DNA of 64,000 nt from an uncultured Candidatus Peribacteria bacterium (lineage in GTDB: Bacteria > Patescibacteriota > Gracilibacteria > BD1-5 > UBA6164): positions 118,470-182,469 of the forward strand of contig CAZJHB010000001.1 in the NCBI GenBank assembly GCA_964545685.1. Direction: 5' to 3'. The notes below the pieces were generated by a model. The model was not told the origin of the DNA and ran no database searches. It saw nothing but the letters and a program-made list of their open reading frames with translations. How positions within the stretch are numbered: the stretch's first letter is position 1; the number at the start of each line of letters is the position of its first letter. Positions 43,582-45,801 of this stretch are shown in pieces. The translations under genes were made by a program, and so were the position numbers.

Positions 43582-45801
43582 TTATAAATATAAATCGTCT
43601 ACATCATCATCCATGATAATGTTATTATTTGTAATAAATATCATATTTTTTTCATTATATAAATCACATATACTAATACCAGATGTTAAATCTTTATTGG
43701 TATAATTTGGAATAATTCTATTTGCATCATAAGATTCCGTGATTTTTTTGACTTCTGCGGAATTTTCAATAATTTGTTTTCCTTTATATCCAGCCAATTT
43801 CTCGAATAATTTTTCTGATTTAATTTTACTAAAATATTCAGAAGGCATTACTAAAATGAAATTAATATTATAATCATATTGTTTTTTAACATTGATATTT
43901 TTTTCCTCAATATTGTATAGAATTTTAGCAATAATACTAGTAGCACCTTCTAAAAATTGAAAGTTATCAATAATAATAATACCCTTTTTTCGGTTATATT
44001 CTTCACTAATTTTATCATCCAATAATGTTTGAAACATCTGAGCGTTGATAATATATTCAACACAATTAATATAAGATACATGATCGATTGATTTATCATG
44101 TTGATATTTATTGGCGGTTTCTAATGCAATAGTAGATTTACCTGTACCAATACCACCGTGAATAAGTGTAATTTTTACACCATTCTTTTTTAATTCTAAA
44201 TTATTAATAGTTTGATTAATAGCGTTATCTGCTATACTTATATTCTTAACAAATCCGTTTTTTGAAATATTTGAACTAATTGTAAAATAATTACCACCAG
44301 GTGGAATACATTCACTAATAGCCTTTGCAATCATTTCATCGGTAAGAACAATGTTATTCATCTTTATTTTAGTAAAATCGATTGAATTATCATTGTTTAA
44401 TTCTTCTATAATATTATTGCACAGCATGTTTTGAACACGTGAAAATGCTTCACTTATCATGGCACCAGTAAAACCCGATGTCATAAATGCAAATTGATCA
44501 ATATTAGGATTTTTAATAATATTATTTTCAATATAAGGTTGTAATTGTAATTCTATCATTTCTTTACGTCCTTCAGTATCGGGAATACCAACTTCGATTT
44601 TAAGTCCTAAACGACCAGAACGAAGAATAGCATCATCAAGTAAATCTAATCTATTTGTTGTTCCAATAACAATATAATTATCGTTCTTTTTAATACCATC
44701 TATCTTAGATAAAAATTGATTAACAACTTTATCATCAATACCTGTACCACCAGAACTGCTTCCGCGTTTTTTTAGCAATGAATCAATTTCATCGATAATA
44801 ATTAAGAAAAATCCATCAGGATTACTCTCGGCTTCGGCAAAAATATCTCTGATATTAGATTCAGACTGACCAACATATTTATTTAAAACTTCCGGACCAG
44901 ATATTATTTTTGGTTCATTGGTAAAGCTAGCTAATTTAGAAATTTTACTAGCAATTAATGATTTTCCTGTTCCCGGTTGACCATAAAGAATACAACCTTT
45001 TTGTTTAAGATTTTTTAAATTCGGCATACCAACACCTCGAGGAAGTAAAAGTTGATTATATATTTCTCTTAAAATATGCGATGCACCACCAATACCAATA
45101 TTTTTATATGTAATTTCATTAGGTGGAATAAGTCCTTTTAGGACACTATCACCACGATAGTTCATATAATTTTTTTCATTGATATAATTAATATATGTAT
45201 ATAATGAATCTTTTTCAAGTAAAATTTCAGTTTTTTCAATATCAATAACACCTTCCGTGTCATTATCATTAATAGTAATCGGAACAATGTTTAATGTTAT
45301 TGTTTTATTTAAATTTTTAGGTGTATATTTAATAAAATATACACGGTTTTTAATAAAATACGATTGTGATAAGTATTTTTTAATTATATCGATCAATTCA
45401 GCCGCATCTATCACTATATTCATGTCATATGTAGTAGTTAAATAAACATTGAAAATGATTTTATTTATAATATTATTATTTGTAACAATAAAAGGTTCAA
45501 TATCATAATCTTTTTTAGGATTTATTTCTAAACATTTATAATTATTACTTGAAATCATATAATAGTTATTTACAATTCTTTTTGGAATTCTAATCATGTT
45601 ATATGTATTTTCAACATTTTCAATACTATTAATATGATCCATAAAACATACTTGATTTATCAATGGCATATGATTAATATCTTTAATAATTGCATAATAA
45701 ATTTTCTGACCATTAATTTCAGATTCTGATAATAAATTCATATATTCTCTTCTTAGAAAAATTTTCGAACTAACAACGTCTTCGATACAACAGATTTTCA
45801 T
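43582..45801 (-). CDS. NSF (N-ethylmaleimide-sensitive factor)/Sec18-like double AAA+ ATPase
   Basis: The D1 domain [56 protein letters not shown] ... [15 protein letters not shown] ... [12 protein letters not shown] ... [35 protein letters not shown] tracks NSF-specific strings (EPKvVNGPEiLNKYVGESEaNIR, VVNQLLSKiDGV, GRLEvkmEIgLPDekGR). A second, degenerate P-loop is [12 protein letters not shown]. Length is 739 aa (NSF is ~745). Confidence 0.75.
   Translation of the reverse strand: [739 protein letters not shown]

Follow-up and report, generated by a model that had tools for sequence, protein, structure and literature searches.

An NSF-like gene in a giant virus

The minus strand of a 64-kb stretch of contig CAZJHB010000001.1 (~23% G+C; hereafter the window, meaning the whole stretch of DNA analysed) carries an open reading frame (ORF) that runs uninterrupted from ATG to stop over 2,220 nt and encodes a 739-amino-acid (aa) protein similar to NSF/Sec18, the ATPase that recycles SNARE complexes. 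At such a low G+C content stop codons are frequent, so that an ORF of this size is not expected by chance. The gene is encoded by an uncultivated giant virus (Nucleocytoviricota). Six public contigs assembled from metagenomes (ENA, Logan, JGI, and NCBI), the largest of 186,637 bp, encode an identical protein, and a search of 5.8 billion clustered proteins yielded no close relative. A preliminary description made from the sequence alone had proposed an N-domain, an active D1 AAA domain, and a degenerate D2 domain, quoting four short strings in support; the ORF is as described and the strings are present at aa 296–321, 359–370, 394–412, and 549–557, each traced to its nucleotides.

The order of the three domains (N-D1-D2) and the overall size are those of eukaryotic NSF and yeast Sec18 (739 versus 744 aa), and the P-loop lysines at positions 280 and 555 lie near those of human NSF (266 and 549). 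The features of the gene and its product are listed in Table 1. Pfam recognized a single canonical AAA domain (PF00004, aa 271–405, E 1.3e-36) and a second P-loop region (aa 540–630) with only generic, weak matches (AAA_14, AAA_22, DnaA). The NSF sequences that we retrieved carry AAA_lid_3 and most of them also at least one of CDC48_N, CDC48_2, and NSF-lid; in contrast, the viral protein matched none of these models (CDC48_N being PF02359 and CDC48_2 PF02933).

Table 1 Features of the NSF-like gene and of the protein it encodes, in window coordinates
Feature	Coordinates	Strand	Protein positions and remarks
Complete ORF, NSF/Sec18-like type II AAA+ protein (N-D1-D2)	43582..45801	-	739 aa + stop
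N-terminal domain and linker	45118..45801	-	aa 1-228
Segment aligned to NSF-N profiles (second half of N_A, and N_B)	45202..45582	-	aa 74-200; Tyr88, Lys89, Thr124
D1 AAA domain, NSF-type, predicted catalytically active	44311..45117	-	aa 229-497
D1 Walker A GQPGTGKS	44959..44982	-	Lys280 = NSF Lys266
D1 pore loop 1 KYVG	44869..44880	-	Tyr309 = NSF Tyr294
D1 Walker B IIIDEID	44782..44802	-	Asp337-Glu338 = NSF Asp328-Glu329
D1 sensor-1 Asn383 and arginine fingers Arg394, Arg397	44611..44655	-	= NSF Asn374, Arg385, Arg388
D2-like domain, nucleotide-binding, probably non-hydrolysing	43585..44310	-	aa 498-739
D2 Walker A	44131..44157	-	Lys555 = NSF Lys549; aa 549-557
D2 Walker B-like strand IIIIDN	43963..43980	-	Asp612-Asn613 = NSF Asp603-Asp604; no catalytic Glu

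An NSF-type D1 domain with a predicted active motor

The D1 domain retains all the catalytic, pore-loop, and arginine-finger residues of NSF/Sec18. In an alignment of 73 sequences (A3; the viral protein and 72 other NSFs), the corresponding columns vary little or not at all, those of sensor 1 and the arginine fingers being strictly invariant. The proposal of an active D1 therefore withstood inspection of its Walker B and arginine fingers, and the domain, which has every residue required for ATP hydrolysis and substrate threading, is predicted to be a working motor.

Several comparisons placed this domain with NSF rather than Cdc48, as had been proposed. It is 40% identical to human NSF D1 (63% positives over 248 aa). 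In per-domain phmmer searches it scored 164–200 bits against the NSF D1 domains of fungi, cnidarians, a mollusc, Plasmodium, a green alga, and marine protists, versus 117–144 bits against the D1 and D2 domains of Cdc48. Likewise, on profiles built without the viral protein, it reached 249 bits for NSF-D1 versus 162 and 176 bits for Cdc48 D1 and D2. Two neighbour-joining (NJ) trees recovered an NSF-D1 clade containing the viral domain, with bootstrap support of 96% (131 taxa, 100 replicates) and 98.5% (79 taxa, 200 replicates). Among the sequences in the PDB, NSF/Sec18 gave the best match over a single stretch (190 bits), the Sec18 alignment spanning residues 212–630 and thus running on into the second domain, whereas single VAT/Cdc48 domains reached at most 136 bits and the other families listed scored lower per domain (the lowest-ranked of them totalled ~160 bits across two domains). 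Pex1/6, NVL, and similar families entered the comparison through this PDB ranking only. On profiles and trees alike, D1 is assigned to the NSF-D1 clade. The acidic insertion that is specific to NSF and follows the ‘AEAE’ motif is 6 aa shorter in the viral domain.

Inside the NSF-D1 clade, the viral domain branches near the base, alongside further divergent sequences from giant viruses. The D1 of L012 was closest to it (79% and 85% bootstrap in the two trees), followed by that of L013 (47% and 58%); these labels, as other L- and P-numbers below, denote homologous sequences or contigs retrieved in the analysis. We do not rely on this grouping because all three sequences are extremely A+T-rich, which makes compositional or long-branch attraction a real possibility.

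The D1 strings quoted in the preliminary description as specific to NSF turned out to be less exclusive. A back-translated scan for NKY.G.SE.NIR retrieved 80 bacterial and archaeal loci (L037–L116), nearly all with better scores on Cdc48-domain profiles than on NSF-D1. This string also occurs in many AAA proteins that fit Cdc48 profiles better than NSF-D1 and, therefore, is not diagnostic on its own; the NSF assignment is carried by the profiles and trees. The loci retrieved include ~500-aa AAA proteins of many Gammaproteobacteria (Zooshikella, Thiodiazotropha, Granulosicoccaceae) and ~940–1,380-aa proteins of Lachnospiraceae and Butyrivibrio, all of them closer to Cdc48-type profiles than to NSF-D1.

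The C-terminal domain and the N-domain

The C-terminal domain can be aligned in register with NSF D2, its IIIIDN strand matching VVVDD and its C-terminal ISICDLY matching IGIKKLL. As in NSF/Sec18, the Walker A lysine is present, the catalytic glutamate is absent (Asp-Asn replacing Asp-Glu), and the equivalent of NSF Lys631 is kept, here as Lys640. Asparagine at the position of NSF Asp604 is found in 21 of the 72 other NSFs. The domain scored 20.5 bits on the NSF-D2 profile, compared with 9.3 on NSF-D1, 5.5 on Cdc48-D1, and 5.3 on Cdc48-D2, and 13.9 bits on a D2 profile made only from eukaryotic sequences, a value that none of 500 shuffled sequences matched. With hhalign, the similarity to NSF D2 extended from Walker A through Walker B (72 columns, probability 94%), whereas other AAA profiles aligned only over 25 columns at the P-loop. 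The domain is collinear with NSF D2, with a profile match that is weak (14–20 bits) but specific. Given its register, its preference for the NSF-D2 profile, and its lack of the catalytic glutamate, ‘degenerate D2’ is a fair term, and we predict that the domain probably binds nucleotide without hydrolysing it.

The N-domain is the weakest part of the assignment and also the one from which most can be learnt. A mixed NSF-N profile that included viral members matched aa 74–200 with 32.1 bits (E 4.5e-12), and no more than 12.3 bits was obtained with any of 500 shuffled sequences; the Cdc48-N profile gave -0.6 bits. A second profile, built from N-domains without a eukaryote name (viral and metagenomic NSF-like proteins), scored 39.1 bits on the viral domain (E 3e-14) and 191.8 bits on human NSF-N, the human, fungal, and Plasmodium N-domains ranging from 136 to 192 bits. 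The N-domains closest to that of our protein (P0273, L004, and P0303) resemble it at only 7–15 bits in pairwise comparison, and they reach 45–55 bits on a eukaryote-only NSF-N profile. Divergent viral and metagenomic intermediates thus link the domain to eukaryotic NSF-N and, therefore, homology is transitive: the N-domain is probably a remote relative of NSF-N, through divergent viral intermediates only and over aa 74–200. In NSF-N, the N_A subdomain, of which the second half is covered by this segment, is a double-psi barrel, and N_B is an alpha/beta roll. The NSF-like N-domain of the preliminary description held in this indirect form; direct comparison with eukaryotic NSF-N did not sustain it, as detailed below. 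The domain also carries an insertion of ~33 residues, within aa 1–73. Taken together, these comparisons would leave D1 outside the Cdc48 and other AAA clades and the N-domain not devoid of similarity to NSF-N.

Predicted structure

A model predicted by AF2 (AlphaFold2) from the 73-sequence NSF alignment had a mean pLDDT (predicted local distance difference test) of 74.9, with values of 85–95 in D1, 68–89 at aa 100–200, 55–81 in D2, and 34–66 at aa 1–90. A single-sequence prediction of the N-domain was uninformative (pLDDT 32.6). Searched with Foldseek against the PDB, the full-length model had NSF/Sec18 as its best match: the top 46 hits were full-length Sec18 or NSF chains (E down to 7e-42, template modelling score up to 0.70, alignments of ~770–790 columns), and p97 first appeared at rank 47. 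Against viral models (BFVD), the best hits were full-length proteins of Yasminevirus and Tupanvirus deep ocean, followed by longer AAA proteins of Moumouvirus and Yasminevirus aligned over ~480–510 columns.

Viral relatives

Virus-encoded NSFs are already known, and the novelty implied in the preliminary description was overstated. Two kinds have been described in giant viruses (Khalifeh, Neveu & Fasshauer, Traffic 2022, PMC9546365). Type 1 proteins have the canonical N-D1-D2 layout and were probably acquired repeatedly from eukaryotes, whereas in the divergent Type 2 NSF-like proteins D1 is the sole AAA domain and follows a long N-terminal region that is also conserved in proteins of Chlamydiae; the NSF-like protein of Mimivirus is located in viral factories (PMC9546365). 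Iridoviruses are among the entries of the same study (Table 1). A 2025 survey reported viral SNAP and SNARE genes as well, mainly in Imitervirales (PMC11915834). In UniProt, Tupanvirus deep ocean has a ‘Vesicle-fusion ATPase’ (A0A6N1NG56) and Yasminevirus a homologue (A0A5K0UAC5).

Our protein shares with the Type 1 proteins (those of Tupanvirus and Yasminevirus, and L003–L013 and L117 from IMG/VR) its viral origin and domain layout but has diverged further than any other examined and lacks a close relative. Compared with human NSF, giant-virus NSF-like proteins from IMG/VR gave scores of 682, 660, 467, 467, 373, 355, 319, 294, and 244 bits; at 182 bits, ours lies at the extreme. Among its full-length relatives L004, encoded in a giant-virus metagenome-assembled genome (MAG), scored best (205 bits over residues 70–694), and its full-length identity to viral relatives amounts to 22–31%. 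This divergence also affected the searches. A scan of IMG/VR with the single protein found no relatives, which appeared only when an alignment was used as query; similarly, human NSF as query retrieved mammalian NSFs only, the diversity coming from profile searches. Scans with the motif VVNQ[LF][LF]SKIDG mainly recovered NSF genes that resemble the near-canonical L009 and are not related to the lineage of our protein. Near-canonical genes of this kind (L009, L026, L030, and L031) lie on IMG/VR contigs of 186,250, 208,501, and 211,086 bp, and L009 reaches 660 bits against human NSF.

Two further sequences recall the Type 2 architecture. L012 (= L025/L032; IMGVR_UViG_GVMAG-M-3300023174-128, 2–2239, plus strand) comes from a giant-virus MAG and is truncated where its contig ends; its N-terminal region exceeds 480 aa, its D1 is of NSF type (242 bits on NSF-D1 versus 132 and 161 on the Cdc48 profiles), and it has no D2. 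This protein may belong to the Type 2 NSF-like group, and no relatives of it were found in IMG/VR. L053, from a Verrucomicrobiota MAG (JAGWKU010000037.1, ORF around 2219–2253, plus strand), is a 945-aa frame measured from stop to stop. Its N-terminal region of ~660 aa contains two NSF-N-like matches (aa 113–308, 44 bits; aa 562–635, 11.6 bits) and is followed by a single D1 of NSF type (291 bits versus 157 and 184 for Cdc48), without D2. It recalls the NSF-like proteins of Chlamydiae (PMC9546365), yet it comes from a different phylum of the Planctomycetes-Verrucomicrobia-Chlamydiae group. The N-terminal regions of L012 and L053 show no mutual similarity. An IMG/VR collection aimed at Type 2 proteins contained a single NSF-type member, the Type 1 protein L117, the rest being Cdc48-like or generic AAA proteins, and the Type 2 genes of Chlamydiae did not come up in the NKY.G.SE.NIR scan of bacterial and archaeal genomes.

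Genomic surroundings

The genes around that of the NSF-like protein encode the RNA polymerase Rpb1, two NUDIX hydrolases, a family-X DNA polymerase, SNF2 and DEAD helicases, and several paralogues with RCC1 repeats. The latter are five, all on the minus strand, at 33235–34227, 47464–48456, and, three in tandem, 58622–62913; they represent a lineage-specific expansion.

Directly downstream of the NSF-like gene, on the same strand and after a gap of 41 bp, lies an ORF of 161 aa (43055–43540) that the preliminary description had called a Ulp1-like peptidase. Its position and strand are as described, but its identity is plausible but unproven: the matches to CE-clan cysteine peptidases are below the Pfam cut-offs (Peptidase_C5, E 0.013; Ulp1 C48, E 0.22). 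It shows a plausible His66-Trp / Asp83 / Gln-x6-Cys121 arrangement and, near the putative catalytic cysteine, a weak match (E 0.029) to another protein of the window. That protein, of 302 aa (18840–19748, minus strand), has a Ulp1 C48 peptidase domain above threshold (27.4 bits for a cut-off of 20.7), so that the virus possesses at least one genuine Ulp1-type protease elsewhere.

Other genes of the window include several of cellular type: a thymidine kinase (7029–7562), an ADP-ribosylglycohydrolase (8966–9925, 149 bits), and a MYG1-family exonuclease (11156–12157, 145 bits) within the region 7029–12157, and, further on, a deoxynucleoside kinase (25140–25694) and a protein with a ParB N-terminal domain (28187–28948). 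Unexpectedly for a giant virus, a 401-aa protein (41561–42766, minus strand) matches F420-0:gamma-glutamyl ligase (PF01996, 99 bits, E 3e-28), the 218 positions of the profile being stretched across 367 residues, which implies large insertions. An ORF of 804 aa without any Pfam match (14062–16476, minus strand) belongs to a 90%-identity cluster that in JGI/IMG includes, on a contig of 183 kb, a pair of shorter proteins (482 and 268 aa), suggesting a split gene call or else a frameshift or other discrepancy between assemblies.

We also looked at the early-promoter octamer of Mimiviridae, AAAATTGA. It is not enriched in the window (33 matches versus 25.6 expected, with 33 reached in 11 of 100 shuffles), and upstream of the NSF-like gene only AAAAGTGA, one mismatch away, was noted, with no exact copy. 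On these grounds, we draw no inference on expression timing.

A viral NSF and its possible function

We conclude, with a probability of about 0.75, that this protein is a highly diverged giant-virus homologue of the SNARE-recycling ATPase NSF/Sec18, with the Type 1 layout. That it belongs to the NSF family and is an active unfoldase, both together, is very probable. By analogy with NSF, the nucleotide-bound D2 would hold the hexamer together, D1 would burn ATP to pull substrate through the central pore, and the N-domain would recruit this substrate via an adaptor. The default substrate would be SNAP-bound SNARE complexes, from the host or from the virus, and the virus would thereby maintain SNARE recycling, or divert the SNAREs, during construction of its membrane-containing factory and virions. 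For this SNAP/SNARE step, which derives from NSF biology, we estimate somewhat less than even odds, because the N-domain has other residues at most of its basic SNAP-contact positions.

A number of observations speak against such an interpretation. Unlike in NSF/Sec18, neither the N-domain nor D2 is recognizable by direct sequence search: phmmer with the N-domain against 1.84 billion representative proteins retrieved only the protein itself and one low-complexity match, a PDB sequence search with the same domain gave no match, and the eukaryote-only NSF-N profile missed it (1.9 bits, equalled by 23 of 500 shuffled sequences). Residues 1–73 do not align to NSF-N profiles and are modelled with low confidence (pLDDT 34–59). 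The C-terminal domain scores higher on generic Pfam P-loop models (AAA_14, 35.9 bits; DnaA, 27 bits) than on the NSF-D2 profile. The trees are NJ trees based on a simple distance, where the protein forms a long branch, basal within its clade, and the agreement found by Foldseek is corroboration rather than independent proof, being partly circular because the input to AF2 was an NSF alignment. Finally, as already remarked in the preliminary description, no SNAP or SNARE gene was found within the 64-kb window: the SNAP, SNARE, syntaxin, synaptobrevin, and Sec1 families had no Pfam match in its ORFs of at least 150 aa and in several shorter ones.

A further objection concerns the surface by which NSF engages its adaptor. 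NSF-N contacts alpha-SNAP through Arg10, Arg67, Lys68, and Lys104, and mutating Arg67, Ser73, or Gln76 lowers SNAP-SNARE binding (PMC11532144). Only one of the four basic residues is kept in the viral protein (Lys68, as Lys89), Arg10 being replaced by Asn22, Arg67 by Tyr88, and Lys104 by Thr124; Ser73 and Gln76 correspond to Asn94 and Lys97. Conservation of these contacts, which the preliminary description had suggested checking, was thus not borne out. Arg67 is nearly invariant (arginine in 69 of the 72 other NSFs, very divergent viral ones included), so that its absence sets our protein apart both from NSF/Sec18 and from nearly all Type 1 viral proteins. Taken at face value, the canonical SNAP interface would not be conserved, and with most SNAP-contact residues replaced, SNARE disassembly by this protein is only inferred. 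It might instead be a re-targeted unfoldase derived from NSF, in which the motor (D1 and the D2 scaffold) was kept while the N-domain moved from SNAP to another adaptor or substrate, for example viral membrane or scaffold proteins or a divergent virus-encoded SNAP-like factor. The N-domain, with its insertion, is indeed the most diverged part of the protein, and the lack of SNAP and SNARE genes in the window fits this possibility. MAFFT and hmmalign both pair Tyr88 with Arg67. However, the alignment is of low confidence here, a shift of one residue would bring Lys89 to that position, and Lys89 could compensate. In addition, the SNAP of the host may itself be divergent, the search for SNAP and SNARE genes covered the 64-kb window only, and the retention of Arg67 in other viral NSFs indicates that the ancestral function was probably SNAP-dependent. 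Re-targeting, the main alternative, is possible but unlikely. We are more doubtful still of a bolder version, in which the protein, its motor fully preserved but most of its basic patch gone along with the SNAP-contact arginine, would no longer be a SNAP/SNARE enzyme but a virus-specific unfoldase using another adaptor or substrate in the biogenesis of the factory or virion membranes, and might also be an intermediate between Types 1 and 2.

A place within the Type 2 lineage, or on the way towards it, with a C-terminal P-loop that may not be a true D2, seems improbable. The D1 is of NSF type, as in Type 2 proteins, its closest neighbour in both NJ trees is L012, with its long N-terminal region and no D2, and the C-terminal domain alone finds DnaA as its sole match in the PDB (E 1.2e-5), not NSF. 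Nevertheless, compositional or long-branch attraction may explain the pairing with L012; the D1 begins (at aa 229) where that of NSF does, after a short NSF-N-like domain, and is followed by a domain that prefers NSF-D2 profiles, the P-loops lying near their positions in human NSF. The N-domain also shows no similarity to the N-terminal regions of L012 and L053, which served as stand-ins for authentic Type 2 references. It is even less probable that the virus acquired an NSF gene which has since lost its function and is decaying. The extreme divergence of the N-domain and D2 and the absence of a close relative would be in line with decay, but the ORF is intact along its whole length despite the low G+C content, and the D1 catalytic and pore residues, invariant in the 72 other NSFs, are all kept, as are the D2 Walker A lysine and the Lys631 equivalent. 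We find least credible of all a segregase of the Cdc48/p97/VAT type. These proteins are, like ours, type II AAA+ proteins of the classical clade with an N-domain and two stacked P-loop domains, D1 is 30–35% identical to their D1 and D2, and they even lead the whole-protein rankings (VAT, Cdc48, and p97 in the PDB, with 250 bits; archaeal Cdc48 among the clustered proteins). This ranking is an artefact of summing scores over two domains, since the single D1 of our protein matches both AAA domains of Cdc48 (135 + 115 bits). Domain by domain NSF wins, the trees separate the two groups with the high support given above, the N-domain is not of the Cdc48-N type, and the second domain, without Walker B glutamate or PF00004 match, is not a canonical hydrolysing AAA domain.

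Giant viruses form their internal membranes and factories from host membranes derived from the endoplasmic reticulum and the Golgi by a poorly understood mechanism, and virus-encoded NSF, SNAP, SNARE, Rab, and SM proteins head the list of candidate tools for this membrane building (PMC9546365, PMC11915834). With viral NSFs already published (PMC9546365) and homologues annotated in Tupanvirus and Yasminevirus, the gene described here opens no new category. Among the viral NSFs of canonical architecture that we examined it is the most divergent, and it illustrates the extent of drift in the N-domain and D2 that is compatible with an intact D1 motor. With the SNAP-contact arginine apparently lost, a testable question arises, namely whether such viral NSFs still depend on SNAP.

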